Shown here piece after piece: positions 22,280-34,704 of a DNA stretch of 34,704 nucleotides (position 1 is its first letter; every line of letters begins with the position of its first letter). The stretch lies in the sequence record SRR20825006_124. One strand, given 5' to 3'. Under the pieces are notes generated by a model. It saw only the letters and a list, made by a program, of their open reading frames with translations. It ran no database searches and was not told the origin of the DNA. A program made the translations under genes and the position numbers.

Positions 22280-23386
22280 TTAAAAACGATATCCCAAGCT
22301 AAATTCTACGCCTTCGGCCTTTGCACCGTGTGCTTTTACCGTTACCGCGGCAAAAACATCATCGGTAAAATAACGCTTCAACCCCAGGCGGTTATACAAT
22401 CGGTTTTCAAACTCGTAAGGATAATAAATATAATACCCCAAATGCGAAACAAACGCAACCTTATTAAAGCGCAGCTCGTGCCCGATAAAAAGCCCAACCC
22501 GTTTCCAATCTTCATCGCCGCTCACGCCCAACTCAGGGAACGATGCAGCCTGAAGCTTGATCAGCTCTTTAAAGAAATAGGCAAAAAATACATCTGTACC
22601 GGCAACCAGCGTGCTTTTGTGATTGATGCGTTTATCTGCAAATGCTGAAACCACAAAAAATGGAAACTGCCCCTGCCCTACAATATCGCTTTCATTAGCA
22701 CCGCCACGCAAAACCAAATTATAATGAACAGGCTCTGTAAATTTTGTACGCTCACCTTCTGGAATATAATCAGGAAATTCCTCGTAATCGAGATTGTAAT
22801 TGACACCAACGTTAAAGGCAAACGTATTAGTACTATTATTAGGCGCGCGCAAGTTTGCATTGCTATAATGAATGATCGTAAAACCCGTATTTAAGCCAAA
22901 TCCTTTGTACAAATTCTGCTTGTTGTATTGAAGCGCTATGTACGTTGAGCTAAGTAATTTTGTTCCGTAAGCGTTGTTGATGTAATTGGTTTCAGGATCG
23001 TACGGGCTGCCGGCAATAGCAACACCCTGACCAATCCTAAAATACGCATTTCGATTTAAAAAATAGAAATTGAAATGCCCATAGAAGCTTATATTCTCGC
23101 CCAAATATTCATTATGCAGATCTTGATAGACCATTGAAAATCCCCAATCAGGATAATTATAACGACGCTCCCATTCATTAAATCCGTAAGTTTTTCGGTT
23201 GTAACTTAAAATAAAACCTGTAGGATGCCCCGTGATCAAATGATTGATATCAGGATTATGCTCAAGGATGCTTCCGTAGAAAAAAGAAGCATCTAGCGAA
23301 ACCGGCTTTTTTTCTTCAGTAAAGTCTCGTTCTTGCGCACTAAGGCCAAAAGAAAACATCAGGACAGCAAGAAAAAGAATTCTCAT
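22280..23386 (-). CDS. Acyloxyacyl hydrolase / PagL-like outer-membrane beta-barrel (copy 1)
   Basis: Signal peptide LSA-Q, HYSNA (PagL-type HxSN motif), aromatic-rich strands and C-terminal LGYRF. Confidence 0.75.
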   Translation of the reverse strand: MRILFLAVLMFSFGLSAQERDFTEEKKPVSLDASFFYGSILEHNPDINHLITGHPTGFILSYNRKTYGFNEWERRYNYPDWGFSMVYQDLHNEYLGENISFYGHFNFYFLNRNAYFRIGQGVAIAGSPYDPETNYINNAYGTKLLSSTYIALQYNKQNLYKGFGLNTGFTIIHYSNANLRAPNNSTNTFAFNVGVNYNLDYEEFPDYIPEGERTKFTEPVHYNLVLRGGANESDIVGQGQFPFFVVSAFADKRINHKSTLVAGTDVFFAYFFKELIKLQAASFPELGVSGDEDWKRVGLFIGHELRFNKVAFVSHLGYYIYYPYEFENRLYNRLGLKRYFTDDVFAAVTVKAHGAKAEGVEFSLGYRF

Positions 23387-24286: not shown

Positions 24287-25912
24287 TTGACGAAAAAATT
24301 CTACTTCGTTTTAGCCTCGATCTTTATCGTGATGCTCGTAGGCATCAGCCAGGGCGGACTCACAGAAAGCAGTGAAGCTCGCTATGCCGAAATTGGCAGA
24401 GAGATGGCACTAAGCAACGATTTTTTGCATCCTAGAATGTTAGGAATAGGCCATTATCATAAACCTCCCGTTACCTATGCGATAACGGCTCTTGGTTATA
24501 AAATCTTTGGTTTTAATGAATTTGGAGCACGCTTTTTTTTAGCGGTCGCATTACTGCTTCAGTTGTTGCTTGTTTATAAAATGGGTAAACTTTGGTTTGA
24601 AGATCGCAAAACCGGAATTTTTGCCGCGCTGATCTATTTTACCTTTCCTATTGTACTCGCAAGTGTTTTAAACCTTACAACAGACGCCTATCTAAATACC
24701 TTTATTTTATCAAGTATTTGCTGCTTTCTGGTTGTCAAACTCAAGAAGAAAAAAAGCTTTTTATATCTAGGATATGCGCTTCTAGGGATCGCATTTCTAA
24801 TCAAAGGTCCGGTGGCATTTTTACCCGTCGCCCTATTTATGATCTGTTATAAAATAAGCACAAAAGAGCCGATAAAACCTTCTAAACACACGGTTTTAGG
24901 CATCCTTTTATTATTGGGTATTTCTGCATCTTGGTTTATCGCTATTGTTTTAGAAAAACCTAATCTGCTTGATCATTTTATTGAAGATCAAATCGTAAAA
25001 CGCAGTGTTGATGCTTCGCAATTTAAACGCAGTAAACCCTTCTGGTATTACCTTGCTTTTGCGCCATTACTCTGCCTACCTTGGACTGTACCATTTGTTT
25101 ACGTACTTATCGCAAAGCGGAAGCGCTTAGCTTTCACCCCACAACTCAAAACTTTAGGATTTTCTTGTTTAGCGATTCTCCTGGTGTTCTCACTGTTTTC
25201 TTCAAAACTCATTTTTTATATTTTACCGCTGTATCCTTTACTGGCGCTACTTTTTGCCGGTGTTTACAAACAGGTCTTAGAACACGAAAAAAACTATTTT
25301 CTACTAACTTACAAAGTAGGCTTTGGAATTTTAACCGGAATGGCAATCGCATTGCTCTGTATTCCCACATTTGAATACAAAATTTGGTTTAGCATACTTG
25401 CGCTAGCAGCAATAGGAAGCTATTTCTACTGGTGGAATTTTAAAGCTAAAGCCTCAAAGAGCACACGCCTTTTTGCCTTAAGTACTGGAGCAACACTCCT
25501 TTTATTGCTGTTGTATTTCAGTTTTGCACCTCAAAACGAACTCTTATTACGCAGTTTTAAACCGCAATATGCTTTTATCGAAAAGCAAAGAAAGGACACA
25601 AAGGATTACAAAGTGATTGTCTACGATTATCGCCTACCTTCTGCGGCATTTTATTTGGGAGATCGCATCGTCACTGTGACCAACACCAATTACGAGTCGT
25701 TACGCGATACGCGATTTGAAAGAGATTCTAGCTGGACGCAATCTTACATTGATCTTAGAGATCCAAACAACTATGAGCGTTTTAAAAGCTTACTGAAAGA
25801 CTCTACAAATATTATAATCACAAAAGACCGTAGACCTATTCCTGATAGTTTAGAATATCTGACCAAGCATTTTGAGGTTGAAGAATTTGGCGACTGGCGC
25901 GTGCACTATTAA
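24287..25912 (+). CDS. ArnT / GT83-like (PMT-2) membrane glycosyltransferase
   Basis: EARYAEIGREM, HKPP, NEFGARF, KGPV, PFWYY and SKLIFYILP; many TM helices; TTG start. Confidence 0.85.
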   Translation: MTKKFYFVLASIFIVMLVGISQGGLTESSEARYAEIGREMALSNDFLHPRMLGIGHYHKPPVTYAITALGYKIFGFNEFGARFFLAVALLLQLLLVYKMGKLWFEDRKTGIFAALIYFTFPIVLASVLNLTTDAYLNTFILSSICCFLVVKLKKKKSFLYLGYALLGIAFLIKGPVAFLPVALFMICYKISTKEPIKPSKHTVLGILLLLGISASWFIAIVLEKPNLLDHFIEDQIVKRSVDASQFKRSKPFWYYLAFAPLLCLPWTVPFVYVLIAKRKRLAFTPQLKTLGFSCLAILLVFSLFSSKLIFYILPLYPLLALLFAGVYKQVLEHEKNYFLLTYKVGFGILTGMAIALLCIPTFEYKIWFSILALAAIGSYFYWWNFKAKASKSTRLFALSTGATLLLLLLYFSFAPQNELLLRSFKPQYAFIEKQRKDTKDYKVIVYDYRLPSAAFYLGDRIVTVTNTNYESLRDTRFERDSSWTQSYIDLRDPNNYERFKSLLKDSTNIIITKDRRPIPDSLEYLTKHFEVEEFGDWRVHY

Positions 25913-27000
25913 AGCCTGATCCCTATCCCAAACTCAACAGCTTCGGCTTTTGCACCGTGAGATTTTAAGGTAATCGCTCCAAAAATATTTTCGGTAAAAT
26001 GACGCTTGAGTCCGCCTCTAAAATATACGCGGCCCTCAAAATCATAATCGTAATAGGCATAATAACCAAACTGCGTCACGAAAGAGTTTTTATTAAAATG
26101 CAATTCGTGCCCTACAAAAACTCCGGCGCGCTTCCAATCTTCATCGCCTTTAGTACCGTATTGCTGGGCAAAAGCAATAGATTCATACTCGATCTGATCT
26201 TTTAAGAACGGACTCAAAAACAGATCGGCTCCTACCATTAAACTGCTTTTATGCGTTATACGCTTATCTAAGAAAGAAGAAACCACCAAAAATGAACGAC
26301 GCCCTAGACCTATATAATCACTTTCATTAACACCGGTACGCAAGGCTAAATTCCATTTTATGGGCTCAGTATATCTGCTTTTAACTTTAGGAATATATTC
26401 CGGAAACTCGTCATCATCCAATTGGTAATTCAACCCAATATTGAAGGTAAAAGAATTGGTACTCGCATTAGGAGCCCGCACATTTGCGTTAGAGTAATGT
26501 ACTAGCGTAATCCCTGTTTGCAAGCCAATACGATCAATGATATTAGGCTGCTGATAATTGAGCATCACATATGTTGAACTCAACAAAGTGGATCCGTAGG
26601 CATTATTTCTAAAGTTATCGTCAATATCAAAAGGCTTTGTGGTAAAGGCAATTCCTTGCGCAATACGCACCATCAAATGTCTGTTGAGCGCATAAAAATT
26701 AAAATGCCCGTACAAACCATAATTCTCTCCTAAATATGGATTCTTCTGATCTTGAGAAACAAAAGAAAACCCATAATCAGGATAGTTGTAGCGTGCTTCC
26801 CAATCATTAAAACCGTAAGTTCTTCGGTTGTAGGCTAAAATAAAACCCGTGGGATGCCCGGTTATGAGATGCGAAATATCTTTATTATGCTCGAGAATGC
26901 TTCCGTAGGTATAATTAAGATCAAAACTATAAGGTTTTACTTCTTCCTGGCTGTATACCGAAACAAAACACAATATGGCAACAATAAACTTGTAATTCAT
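25909..27000 (-). CDS. Acyloxyacyl hydrolase / PagL-like outer-membrane beta-barrel (copy 2)
   Basis: Full-length paralogue of 22280..23386 (shared HLITGHPTGFIL, RYNYPD, LLSSTY, HYSNAN, GDEDWKR, HGAKAE); signal peptide VYS-Q. Confidence 0.75.
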   Translation of the reverse strand: MNYKFIVAILCFVSVYSQEEVKPYSFDLNYTYGSILEHNKDISHLITGHPTGFILAYNRRTYGFNDWEARYNYPDYGFSFVSQDQKNPYLGENYGLYGHFNFYALNRHLMVRIAQGIAFTTKPFDIDDNFRNNAYGSTLLSSTYVMLNYQQPNIIDRIGLQTGITLVHYSNANVRAPNASTNSFTFNIGLNYQLDDDEFPEYIPKVKSRYTEPIKWNLALRTGVNESDYIGLGRRSFLVVSSFLDKRITHKSSLMVGADLFLSPFLKDQIEYESIAFAQQYGTKGDEDWKRAGVFVGHELHFNKNSFVTQFGYYAYYDYDFEGRVYFRGGLKRHFTENIFGAITLKSHGAKAEAVEFGIGIRL

Positions 27001-30826: not shown

Positions 30827-31840
30827 CTAGGCGTTAGTAGCCTGTGGCAACGGTCTTGGCTTATATTCTTTAACGAGTTGCGCAATCGCGCTAATGTGTT
30901 CTGGAGTGGTCCCGCAACAACCGCCAATGATGTTGATCAATTGTTTGTCTAAATATTCTTTAATTTGAGCTGCCATTTCCTCTGGAGTCTCATCATATTC
31001 TCCAAAAGCATTAGGCAGACCGGCATTAGGATAAGCCGATATCGCAAAATTAGATTTGCCTGAAACCACCTCTAAATATGGTGTAAGTTGCTTTGCCCCT
31101 AAAGCGCAGTTGAATCCCACAGACAGTAAAGGAAGGTGACCCACTGAGATTAAAAAGGCCTCAGCAGTTTGCCCGGAAAGGGTGCGCCCGGAAGCATCGG
31201 TAATTGTACCGCTTACCATCACCGGAATTTCAATATTACGTTCTTCTTTAATCTCTTCAATCGCGAATAATGCAGCTTTTGCATTAAGCGTATCAAAAAC
31301 AGTTTCGACCAGAAGAATATCTACGCCGCCATCAATTAAAGCTTCGGCCTGTTGCTTATAAGCAATGCGTAGCTCATCAAACGAAATCGCTCTAAAACCT
31401 GGATCATTTACATCTGGAGACATACTCGCGGTTTTGTTAGTAGGACCAATAGCTCCCGCTACAAAGCGCGGTTTTTCTGGCTCTAGCGCAGTAAACTCAA
31501 GCGCTACTTTCTTAGCAATTTTTGCAGATTCAAAATTGAGTTCGTACACAAATTCTTCCATCCCATAATCTGCCATGGCTATGGTAGTACCGCTAAAAGT
31601 ATTGGTTTCTACAATATCTGCTCCCGCCTCAAAATATTTGGCGTGTACTTGCGCGATCGCATCGGGCTGGGTGATACTCAACATATCATTATTACCCTGT
31701 ACAGGAGTAGGCCAATCTTTAAAACGCTCTCCTCTAAAATCTTCTTCGGTGAACTTATAGCGTTGAAGCATGGTCCCCATCGCTCCATCTAAAATTAGAA
31801 TGCGCTTTTTAAGTTCCTCTTGAATGTTATTCTTACTCAT
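30827..31840 (-). CDS. metH: Methionine synthase homocysteine-binding module (N-terminal half of split MetH)
   Basis: [26 protein letters not shown], and zinc ligands GFNCALG and GGCCGT; start is 31840 or 31846. Confidence 0.93.
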
Positions 31841-31990
31841 AATCATTTCCTCCAAAAGTCTTTAGACTATTACTAACGTCTAAAAACACAACTTTCATTC
31901 TTGTATAAATCAATACTACTCTAGATCTTAGAGCAGTTTGCAAAATTAGGTTATTAAGAAAGCATATGGAAAGCCGATGAGACTTGTTTT

Positions 31991-32090
31991 TGTTATCTAT
32001 CGCTGATGTAGCGTAGAATGTAGCACCTTCTCCGAGAGGAGGGTTGCTAAGGTTTCATCGGGTCTAATCCCTCTACCTTTCTTGATAACA
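31991..32090 (-). ncRNA. SAM-I riboswitch aptamer
   Basis: Minus strand TGTTATC-AAGA-AAGGTAGAGGGATTAGACCCGATGAAACCTT-AGCAACC..GGTGCT-ACATTC..-AGATAACA. It shows P1 TGTTATC/GATAACA, ATCAAGA, kink-turn GAGGGA..CCCGATGA and P3 GCAACC/GGTGC, and lies upstream of metH-metF. Confidence 0.92.
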
Positions 32091-32348
32091 GCAATAAATA
32101 ATGAACTAGGATGCAAATATTGTAAATCGCATTGACAAAATGCAATTTTAAGAGCATAAATATTGTCATTTTTTAGGTCTGATTTTCGACGAAGAACGCT
32201 ATAACAACGAGTAAAAAATAACTTGTAAATCTTAACTAAGTTAAAAAAACCAACTAACATATTGATTTTTAGTAATTTAATTAATGATAATAAAATGTAT
32301 ATTTAAAAGTTAAATTTTGTTTCTTTACACAACCCAAATTCTAAGCTT

Positions 32349-32936
32349 ATGAGCAATACAACTACCTCACAATCATCACGTTTTAAAATCGTTAACTATG
32401 AGGATGCCTCTCCCGAGGTTCAGGCAATTTATGATGATACCAAACGAACGTTACAATTACCTTTTGTTTTAAATTGGTTTAAATGTCAAGGTTCAAACGC
32501 AACATTACTTAATGGAAACTGGACCAAGCTGAAGTCTACCTTGATGATGGGAGATGTGCCTAATGTTTTAAAACAGCTTATCATCTACAAAGTTTCTAAG
32601 GAGCGTAATTGTGAATATTGTGCACAAGCACACGGTATTTTTGCCGACAGCATGAGCGCTATGATTTCTGACAACCCTAGCTTTAGAGCAACTGAAGATC
32701 TTGAAAGCCCTCTTATTCCTGAAAGCTTTAAAACAGCGATCAAAATCGTGACCAAAGCTGCTTTGCACGCTAATCAAATAAGCGATGCAGATTTTAAACA
32801 GCTACAAGAAGTAGGCTTTGACGAAGGTGAAATACAAGAACTTATGGCACAGGCTGATTTAGTCAATATGCTGAATACCCTTGCCGATGTTTCAGGTATT
32901 AAAATTGACAATGAGCTCATGGAAGCTCAGGCCTAA
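32349..32936 (+). CDS. AhpD/carboxymuconolactone decarboxylase-like protein with CxxC
   Basis: EDASPEVQAIYD N-terminus, NCEYCAQAH (CxxCxxxH) and ISDADFKQLQEVGFDEGEIQEL...N.LAD C-terminus typical of peroxidase-related AhpD proteins. Confidence 0.82.
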   Translation: MSNTTTSQSSRFKIVNYEDASPEVQAIYDDTKRTLQLPFVLNWFKCQGSNATLLNGNWTKLKSTLMMGDVPNVLKQLIIYKVSKERNCEYCAQAHGIFADSMSAMISDNPSFRATEDLESPLIPESFKTAIKIVTKAALHANQISDADFKQLQEVGFDEGEIQELMAQADLVNMLNTLADVSGIKIDNELMEAQA

Positions 32937-32948
32937 TCATCTTTAGTT

Positions 32949-33800
32949 TTGAATCTTTCGGGCGCAAAGTATCGTATTACTTATGAAGCCTTTTCTAAAT
33001 TCTCCGGAAACTTAAGTAAAGTTGAGTCACTAGAAGAATTAGGCAAAATCATAAGTAGACACTTAAAATACCTGTTTAACTACAAGGTATTTAAAATCAT
33101 GATTTTGCATGAGCAATCGCTTGCGGGGTATACCTTTCTGCCCGGCAAAACAATCACGCATAACCAGCAACAAGATCTTGAACCTTATGAGCGCCTATTA
33201 CTTAAGGACAGAATTCCCTTTGTAAATTCAATTGATTCAACAGAATTACCAGAATACCTTAAAGATGTAAAACTAAATAATGGCAATTTATGGGGTTGGT
33301 TTTTAGCGTATTCTGAATATCAGATCTGTATTTCTCTTGTCTCTGATGATGACACGTATTTTAGCAGCTCAGACGTAGATATCGTTCATCTATTAGCCGA
33401 TAGTGTTGCGTCAAAATACAGACAAATCAGCCTAAGCGAGATCTTACAACAGAATAATATTCATTTGGAATCACTGGTTACAGAGATCGCTTGTAAAAAC
33501 AAAGAGATCAAAGCGATTAATGACAATCAACAACTCGTCATTGAAGCACGGACGGAAGAACTTCTTCAAAAGAATAAGAAGCTTTTTGAACTTTCTAGAT
33601 TGAATGCACACGATTTGAGAGAACCGCTTAGTCGCGTTTTAGGCTTACTCGAACTGGCTGAACATTTACCACAAGACGAACTGCGCTCTTCTATATTACC
33701 AAAAATTAAAGAAGCCTCTGGGCATTTAGACCAAGTTATACAGCGCGTAGTCACTCAAAGTGAAAAAGAGCTCATCAATATTAAATCATCTCAACCCTAA
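32949..33800 (+). CDS. Soluble sensor-like protein: possible GAF-like domain, coiled coil and HisKA phosphoacceptor; no HATPase domain
   Basis: H-box NAHDLREPLSRVLGLLEL, signalling-helix-like VIEARTEEL and second helix HLDQVI; ends about 60 aa after the His. The GAF call is tentative. Confidence 0.72.
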   Translation: MNLSGAKYRITYEAFSKFSGNLSKVESLEELGKIISRHLKYLFNYKVFKIMILHEQSLAGYTFLPGKTITHNQQQDLEPYERLLLKDRIPFVNSIDSTELPEYLKDVKLNNGNLWGWFLAYSEYQICISLVSDDDTYFSSSDVDIVHLLADSVASKYRQISLSEILQQNNIHLESLVTEIACKNKEIKAINDNQQLVIEARTEELLQKNKKLFELSRLNAHDLREPLSRVLGLLELAEHLPQDELRSSILPKIKEASGHLDQVIQRVVTQSEKELINIKSSQP

Positions 33801-34183
33801 TGACTACAAAGCCCCTAAAAGTGATGCTGGTTGATGATCAGAAAATGGCCAACTTTATCAATAAAAAATTGATAGAGATCAGTGGTTTCTCTAGTCACAT
33901 AATTGACTACACCATTCCTAATGCAGCGCTTTCAAATTTAGACAAAGATCAACCTGATCTTATATTTCTAGATTTAAATATGCCTGAAATTAACGGCTGG
34001 ACGTTTTTAGATATTCTTGAAAAAGATGAGCGCCCTACGCGTGTAGTTATCGTCACTTCAAGTACGAGTAGTATTGACAAAGAAAAGGCTCAGAAGTATG
34101 CTCGGGTTATTGACTTTTTAACTAAGCCACTCACCAAGAACACCATTCTAAGCCTTAAATCTAAATTGAATCTAGCAGGGTAG
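33800..34183 (+). CDS. Single-domain response regulator (receiver)
   Basis: MLVDD, PDLIFLDLNMP (phospho-Asp), VTSS and KPL; start overlaps the upstream stop (TAATG). Confidence 0.92.
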   Translation: MTTKPLKVMLVDDQKMANFINKKLIEISGFSSHIIDYTIPNAALSNLDKDQPDLIFLDLNMPEINGWTFLDILEKDERPTRVVIVTSSTSSIDKEKAQKYARVIDFLTKPLTKNTILSLKSKLNLAG

Positions 34184-34184
34184 A

Positions 34185-34703
34185 CTACTCAATAGCCTGC
34201 ACCACTGCTTTCTCTGCTTCTTTTCTTGATCCATCAAAACCATCTATACCACTCACCGTAGTATACTTCATCACATAGCGTTTTCCTGGGTTGATAATTT
34301 TATAGGCAGATTGACACATCATTGTCGCCTCGTGGAAACCACATAAAATCAACTTTAATTTACCGGGATAAGTATTAACATCACCAATGGCAAAAACACC
34401 GGGTATATTGGTTTGATAATCTAAGCTGTTATCTACTACAATAGCATTCTTTTCAATCTCAAGACCCCAGTTTGAAATAGGACCTAGTTTTGGCGAAAGA
34501 CCAAATAAAGGAATAAAAGCATCTGCTTCTACCGAAATTTGCTCTTCGTTCTTCTCTATTACCACTTCTTTAAGTTCATCTACACCACCAAGACCTACAA
34601 CCTCTGCCGGCGTGATCAAGTTGATCTTACCAAGCATTTTAAGCTCACGAACTTTTTCAACAGAATCTAAAGCTCCTCTAAATTCATTTCTTCGGTGTAC
34701 TAA
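34185..34703 (-). CDS. Ferredoxin-NADP reductase / TrxB-like FAD oxidoreductase (5'-partial)
   Basis: The frame stays open to the window edge (LVHRRNEFRGALDS...). Motifs HRRxxFR, TNIPGVFAIGD, YPGKLKLI..GFHEA and YTT. Confidence 0.88.
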   Translation of the reverse strand, partial: LVHRRNEFRGALDSVEKVRELKMLGKINLITPAEVVGLGGVDELKEVVIEKNEEQISVEADAFIPLFGLSPKLGPISNWGLEIEKNAIVVDNSLDYQTNIPGVFAIGDVNTYPGKLKLILCGFHEATMMCQSAYKIINPGKRYVMKYTTVSGIDGFDGSRKEAEKAVVQAIE

Positions 34704-34704
34704 A

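Follow-up and report, generated by a model that had tools for sequence, protein, structure and literature searches.

A candidate sensory cassette pairing an AhpD-fold protein with a GAF-like domain in Bacteroidota

Stand-alone sensors and kinase-like proteins without an ATPase domain

One way to place the three-gene module described here is to start from the H-NOX and NosP proteins, stand-alone sensors that are co-encoded with kinases or c-di-GMP enzymes (PMC6769237, in the sections drawn on here). Accessory regulators of kinases with a similar working principle are treated in the sections consulted of PMC12189002. As in the H-NOX and NosP systems, a small soluble protein is encoded beside a cytoplasmic signalling enzyme, and the type of output differs between genomes. 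The differences lie in fold and partner: here an AhpD/CMD fold carries a Cys-His site, whereas the known sensors have an H-NOX or FIST fold with haem; and the partner here keeps a dedicated GAF domain, whereas HqsK and VpsS are described, in the same sections of PMC6769237, without a sensory domain. Because the fold differs, the module is not a member of the H-NOX/NosP group, although the working principle is alike. Sestrin2 is a case of the AhpD fold used as a partner-binding sensor. It matches the model of our first protein with Z 10.3 (rmsd 3.0, 151 aligned) and shares the use of the AhpD fold in signalling, but it is eukaryotic, has two domains and binds another partner, and is an analogy only.

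By fold, the nearest described proteins are those of the TIGR01926 group (2pfx, 2prr, 2oyo, 6k40; PA0269; Bmp8). The first protein of the module shares with them the fold (TM ~0.75) and the arrangement Cys-x-Tyr-Cys-x3-His; it differs in a Gln for the relay Glu, a third Cys in the motif NWFKCQG, profile scores below the cut-off and a fixed link to a GAF domain.

The second protein has precedents of its own. Nonenzymatic histidine kinase-like proteins of the type ‘HisKA, no HATPase’ are a described class, archaeal in the portion of the source used here (Galperin et al. 2018, PMC5847659). They too have a sensor with a C-terminal DHp, a conserved His and no ATPase domain, and a phosphatase role was proposed for them as well; the present protein differs in belonging to a Bacteroidota DHp clade, in having a cognate receiver and in its extra upstream protein. 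In a sample of the phylum, 21 of the best 30 DHp matches lack the ATPase domain and end 53-68 residues past the His (L199-L227), several of them beside a receiver; with the described class, this means that an ATPase-less HisKA protein is nothing peculiar to this locus. The closest studied phosphatase is the phytochrome DrBphP, in which the Glu at H+4 serves the phosphatase and the acidic residue at H+1 the autokinase; that phosphatase required ATP, with help from the ATPase domain, and DrBphP carries an Arg at H+7 (PMC8292422, in the sections available). The module resembles the DrBphP-DrRR pair in the H+4 Glu and in a related single-domain receiver; at H+1 its family is non-acidic in 84/92 members, the window's own protein having Asp. 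It differs in lacking the ATPase domain, which DrBphP retains along with a need for ATP, and in having neither the H+7 Arg nor a bilin module.

The literature searched, most subscription journals being outside its scope, gave no description of an AhpD-like protein coupled to a GAF signalling protein, nor of any system of this architecture, as had been supposed; the sensory cassette is apparently undescribed.

The locus and its distribution

The window, meaning the whole stretch of DNA analysed (34,704 nucleotides of record SRR20825006_124), carries the module as three genes on the plus strand. Gene 1 (32349..32936; 195 aa, ATG start) encodes an AhpD/CMD-fold protein; gene 2 (32949..33800; 283 aa, TTG start) encodes a GAF-like domain, a coiled coil and a DHp; gene 3 (33800..34183; 127 aa, ATG start) encodes a stand-alone receiver. 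Genes 1 and 2 are separated by 12 nt, and genes 2 and 3 overlap stop to start in TAATG. Upstream, on the same strand, lies an AT-rich intergenic region (32092..32348), the presumed operon promoter, with 23% GC against 40.5% over the window. This arrangement, first read from the sequence alone in an earlier note, was re-found in every part, and the impression given there that all three proteins are cytoplasmic is supported by 19-residue hydropathy maxima of 0.77-0.92, values that imply no membrane helix.

Both flanks are on the minus strand: on the left, the N-terminal part of metH (30827..31855, by domain match) with a SAM-I riboswitch (31990..32091; RF00162, 81.6 bits) of the divergent metH operon; on the right, convergent, the 3' part of a TrxB/ferredoxin-NADP-reductase-like gene (34185..34704; Pyr_redox_2/TrxB-type match). 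The SAM riboswitch-metH assignment thus stood, and the ‘FNR-like’ label holds in the sense of ferredoxin-NADP reductase but not in that of the Fnr regulator. A functional tie to metH or its riboswitch was rejected: metH is a neighbour in only 18/80 loci, and the riboswitch points away from the module. A second sequence, 90% like this riboswitch, lies ~10 kb off in the nearest genome (L002). Elsewhere in the window, two nearby PagL-like (lipid A deacylase) paralogues (22280-23386 and 25909-27000) are found around a DUF2807 gene and a glycosyltransferase.

A TAnnTTTG-like box with one mismatch to the consensus (32312-32319, plus strand) is a promoter-like candidate; TAnnTTTG is what we take to be the Bacteroidota -7 consensus. 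Exact TAnnTTTG occurs in 27/104 upstream regions of orthologues, whereas shuffled sequences gave 8.5; most copies lie 30-49 nt ahead of the start. A search of these regions for an operator motif gave nothing beyond this promoter-like box. A metatranscriptome contig of 1,673 nt spans 32328-34000, although contigs cannot prove a transcript or its start and DNA may be present; a contig from another study spans 32490-33596, with DNA carry-over again possible. Metatranscriptome cover at 32192-32332 was low in four runs.

The genome collection yielded 142 relatives, and the best 80 were read for gene order. The trio is kept in order, with short gaps, in 79 of these 80 loci, the 80th being cut just inside gene 2; the loci span Flavobacteriaceae, Hymenobacteraceae, Chitinophagaceae, Owenweeksiaceae and one Verrucomicrobiota genome, in many flanking contexts. 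No fourth conserved gene appears among these best 80 of 142, and the flanks vary by lineage. The trio is a real conserved sensory cassette, strongly coupled at the level of the genes and kept in order beyond chance, and the synteny across Bacteroidota suggested for testing holds in several families.

A locus named Leeuwenhoekiella palythoae (L003) encodes a protein with 99% identity to the product of gene 1, and the nearest genome (G001) carries the region of the window at 98%. Within the genus the module is present in 21/23 genomes; it is absent from 14 other genera of the family in the same sample. Two near-complete genomes of the genus (L280, L287) show an empty site, in which the oxidoreductase gene is followed within ~450 nt by metH and the trio is missing. 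The trio had been expected to be patchy at this metH/FNR site: it is indeed present or absent there as a unit, but the metH neighbourhood itself is lineage-specific. More widely, the module was found in 0/400 genomes sampled across the phylum (best other score 86 bits) and in 0/300 from the order of L063; it, or a gene 1 orthologue, was found in 18/400 from the order of L057. The module offers a small soluble three-protein system, in culturable marine Flavobacteriaceae, for the role of ATPase-less histidine-kinase-like proteins.

A fixed AhpD-GAF pair with exchanged outputs

In one order, covered by 401 genomes, gene 1 orthologues and the full-length GAF domain occur in the same 19 genomes, at 20 loci each (one genome carries two pairs), and all are adjacent. 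The reverse search with a GAF profile led back to these 19 genomes and their 20 places, with a single weak and partial match besides, although the profile was built from many of the recovered sequences, at most eight candidates per genome were scored and related genomes are not independent. The outputs in this order are not uniform: 11 loci have the DHp-only form, with the receiver adjacent in 11/11, eight have a full kinase and one a SpoIIE domain. In the fetched loci with a gene 1 orthologue above 250 bits, a set that includes repeat views of single places, the GAF domain is adjacent in 145/150; three more show its first residues at a contig end, and two are cut. Beside more distant AhpD-like proteins this GAF domain was found in 0/33 loci.

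Reduced to 106 non-redundant pairs, the outputs divide into 92 DHp-only, 12 kinase-type and two SpoIIE, a split biased towards the window's own type by the way in which loci were gathered; the variants come from metagenome loci and the order sample. Pfam detects the HATPase domain in four of the full kinases (L146, L156, L163, L175), eight more being judged by sequence; the SpoIIE cases are L186 (Pfam) and L232 (motif); L145 has a different HisKA type, cut by a contig end. The earlier note had treated the trio as one unit. Its link between the AhpD-like protein and the GAF input stands, but since relatives carry a full kinase or SpoIIE in place of the DHp and receiver, the invariant unit has two parts, AhpD-like protein and GAF. 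These natural full-kinase and SpoIIE versions would provide a direct enzymatic readout in the search for the signal; proteins related in sequence to the full-kinase form are known by name from Mucilaginibacter paludis and M. gracilis.

A tree of the DHp helices, from 68 columns and with many forks open, places the AhpD-linked DHp-only proteins with other Bacteroidota DHp-only proteins (support 88) and with HNLRAP-type kinases, and the AhpD-linked full kinases apart (support 99). As the DHp-only helices group away from the AhpD-linked kinases, the sequences point to outputs that were exchanged behind the AhpD-GAF pair, more than shortened. In a quick tree of the AhpD-like proteins all 92 DHp-only loci fall on one side of a branch (99), although long outgroup branches leave the order of events unsettled. 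Covariation between genes 1 and 2 over the 106 pairs gave no signal, the top z of 7.4 falling within the 5.8-8.7 of four partner-swapped controls.

A simple account of such a locus would be that gene 1 encodes an ordinary peroxide-detoxifying enzyme, either the regulated output of a two-component pair or its passenger. The AhpD fold with its CxxC fits, as do the sulfur and redox genes on the left and right flanks in the genus; but the receiver has no DNA-binding domain, gene 1 stays with the GAF domain across several outputs and many flanks and is lost jointly with the other two genes, and in the phylum sample no neighbour of this kind stands beside ordinary AhpD-like genes. We regard this account as very improbable.

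The pair invites the perspective of a stand-alone sensor: we give an even chance to the reading in which gene 1 encodes a sensor of AhpD fold that docks onto the GAF domain dedicated to it, and the DHp without an ATPase likely dephosphorylates the adjacent receiver. A wider version, which we put forward tentatively, supposes a two-protein sensory unit: an AhpD-fold enzyme that has become a switch based on thiols or a metal would dock on the GAF and serve several kinds of output (kinase, SpoIIE, ATPase-less DHp and perhaps cyclase), the majority form driving a phosphatase-only DHp that is part of a large ATPase-less class in Bacteroidota. The cyclase enters by way of one locus (L114, at L271:3719-5492), in which the gene for a distant AhpD-like protein lacking both Cys of the CxxC immediately precedes one for an adenylate/guanylate cyclase with a GAF domain whose match to this family is weak (probability 67%). 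If this is the same system, the Cys-less protein would argue against thiol sensing.

The AhpD-like site, the GAF surface and the DHp-receiver pair

Gene 1 scores 22.3 bits against CMD and 47.5 bits against TIGR01926, both below the cut-off; its predicted fold (pLDDT 89) is the all-helical AhpD/CMD fold of the peroxidase-related group, with 2pfx as best structure match (Z 19.8, rmsd 2.7, 183 aligned), Bmp8 at Z 17.9 and M. tuberculosis AhpD at 10.9, just above Sestrin2. The candidate site comprises the CxxC motif Cys88-x-Tyr90-Cys91 (32610-21, plus strand, as are all the codons below), His95 four residues past it (32631-33) and the third conserved Cys, Cys46 (32484-86); Asn176 is a further residue of note. 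In the 150 orthologue loci above 250 bits, Cys88 is present in 149, Cys91 in 150, His95 in 149 and Cys46 in 148. A Glu 12 residues before the first Cys forms part of the AhpD proton relay (PMC3141380, in the parts drawn on). At that place the alignment puts Gln76 (32574-76), in 150/150 orthologue loci; the five best-matching relatives of solved structure carry Glu there. Gln is no unique mark, as it also stands there in 36/150 library representatives below 250 bits. Two intermediate AhpD-like relatives (L193, L194) keep the Glu and have neither Cys46 nor a GAF neighbour. Tandem-duplicated relatives exist (P0199 and P0213, of 307 and 383 aa), and in three Gillisia loci (L023:3882-4442, L051, L062) the module is preceded, on the other strand, by another AhpD-like gene with a CxxC, distant in sequence.

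The work on AhpD gives the greatest importance to both Cys and the His and, in the same parts of PMC3141380, mentions one family member without the Glu. Since the literature searched yielded neither an E118Q mutant of AhpD nor residue data for Bmp8, that the Glu-to-Gln change would reduce turnover is something we can only infer from sequence; against an impaired enzyme, the CxxC, the Tyr and the His are all kept. The signal read would rather likely be the state of the Cys46/Cys88/Cys91/His95 site, by oxidation, by an electrophile or by a bound metal, slowed turnover having made of it a switch.

The partner's model (pLDDT 88) has a GAF-like domain at residues ~3-165, a helix of ~100 residues and a closing helix. 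The domain has no Pfam match at all; the fold and its matches to the GAF domains of PDE6 (Z 12.7, rmsd 3.5, 173 aligned) and PtsP (Z 12.3) back its original identification as GAF-like. Its best-kept residues across output types (R9, Y12, E13, K40, Y41, D142, K156) are mostly on outer helices. It is these helices that the AhpD-like protein probably contacts, the long coiled coil then passing the change to whichever output is fused to it.

A second perspective supposes that the AhpD-like protein is a reductase, dehalogenase or similar enzyme whose substrate or product is the GAF ligand, contact being unnecessary. An enzyme that makes or destroys a ligand would produce the same AhpD-GAF pairing; the mean identity of 66% for the AhpD-like protein against 31% for the GAF domain is as expected of an enzyme, the debrominase Bmp8 is a near structural match, and in the GAF domain Glu81 together with Trp115/Trp117 could form the lining of a pocket. 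Yet the relay Glu is replaced, the best-kept GAF residues lie mostly on the outer helices, conservation of the two Trp reaches just 87 and 90 of 106 pairs, and no transporter or pathway gene accompanies the pair; we consider it fairly unlikely. The docking sensor, if correct, would extend the functions of the AhpD/CMD family, which is large and for the most part uncharacterised, to sensing, and those of this GAF subfamily to protein docking.

Downstream, HisKA matches residues 220-271 of gene 2 at 25.3 bits, just below the cut-off, with no HATPase match: of the two marks of a class I (HisKA) kinase, the DHp with its H-box His is present and the C-terminal HATPase is not. The helix pair (~211-280) carries His221 (33609-11) with Glu225 at H+4, and the protein ends 62 residues past His221 without an ATPase domain. 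The stop falls 54-66 residues past the His in 79/79 loci, immediately followed by the receiver gene, and this shared end rules out a frameshift or assembly truncation. Gene 3 (Response_reg, 69.5 bits) has no output domain; alignment assigns its phosphorylation residues to Asp12-Asp13, Asp58 (33971-73), Thr86 and Lys109, and its nearest solved structures are 3ilh and then 6xvu, which is DrRR. Within the best 80 of the 142 relatives, the DHp His and H+4 Glu are present in 80/80, D12, D13, D58 and T/S86 in 80/80 and K109 in 79/80, the other being cut. The proposed combination of a HisKA protein without a kinase domain and a stand-alone receiver is thus confirmed by the domain matches and the intact His and Asp sites.

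What passes between them is a closer question. With slightly better than even confidence, we suppose that the DHp acts as a regulated phosphatase or phosphate sink for a receiver that works by protein contact and obtains its phosphate from another kinase or from a small phosphodonor. This reading follows from the fixed H+4 Glu, the mostly non-acidic H+1 and the DrRR-related receiver. H+1 may be N, S, T, D, Q, E, H, R, K or I, and is acidic in 8/92 DHp-only proteins against 10/12 kinase-type partners. Asn at H+1 does not prove loss of His phosphorylation, as full-length kinases have it too (5/31 others and 2/12 AhpD-linked). EnvZ reportedly retains phosphatase activity without its catalytic domain. 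Against a phosphatase, the window's own H+1 is Asp; H+7 is Ser (Ser/Thr/Cys across the family), with Arg at H+8, so that the H+7 Arg is absent; and the DrBphP phosphatase required ATP and draws help from an ATPase domain that gene 2 lacks.

The invariant His (80/80 in the best 80 of 142) equally fits phosphotransfer. The same sensor pair could thus govern a DHp that serves as a phosphotransfer station to gene 3, or as a heterodimer partner that siphons from or blocks a full kinase: phosphoacceptor and phosphotransfer roles are named as possible for the class (PMC5847659, same portion), RetS-GacS is a precedent for heterodimers (PMC12189002, same sections), and the nearest genome has 29 full-length HisKA kinases. 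Yet H+1 varies freely while H+4 is fixed, and no stand-alone ATPase gene was seen there, all 42 HATPase matches lying in frames of at least 261 aa, so that a split-off ATPase partner for gene 2 was not seen in that genome either. This alternative appears quite unlikely to us, and we narrowly favour a phosphatase or sink over phosphotransfer.

In the same genome, an ATPase domain would fit in 29/29 of the other proteins that Pfam matches to HisKA, and one more DHp-only protein is missed by Pfam (L216). A second ATPase-less DHp-receiver pair, of 632 aa plus receiver, lies at L270:3803-6088. Two kinases of this genome whose H-boxes are related, a phytochrome and one of CheB/CheR type, were considered as cognate kinases and set aside, as nothing ties them to the receiver. 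ORF translations at L143:5743-13115, also in this genome, show a cluster of a CheB/CheR-PAS kinase, a bacteriophytochrome-like kinase, two receivers and a haem-oxygenase-like gene.
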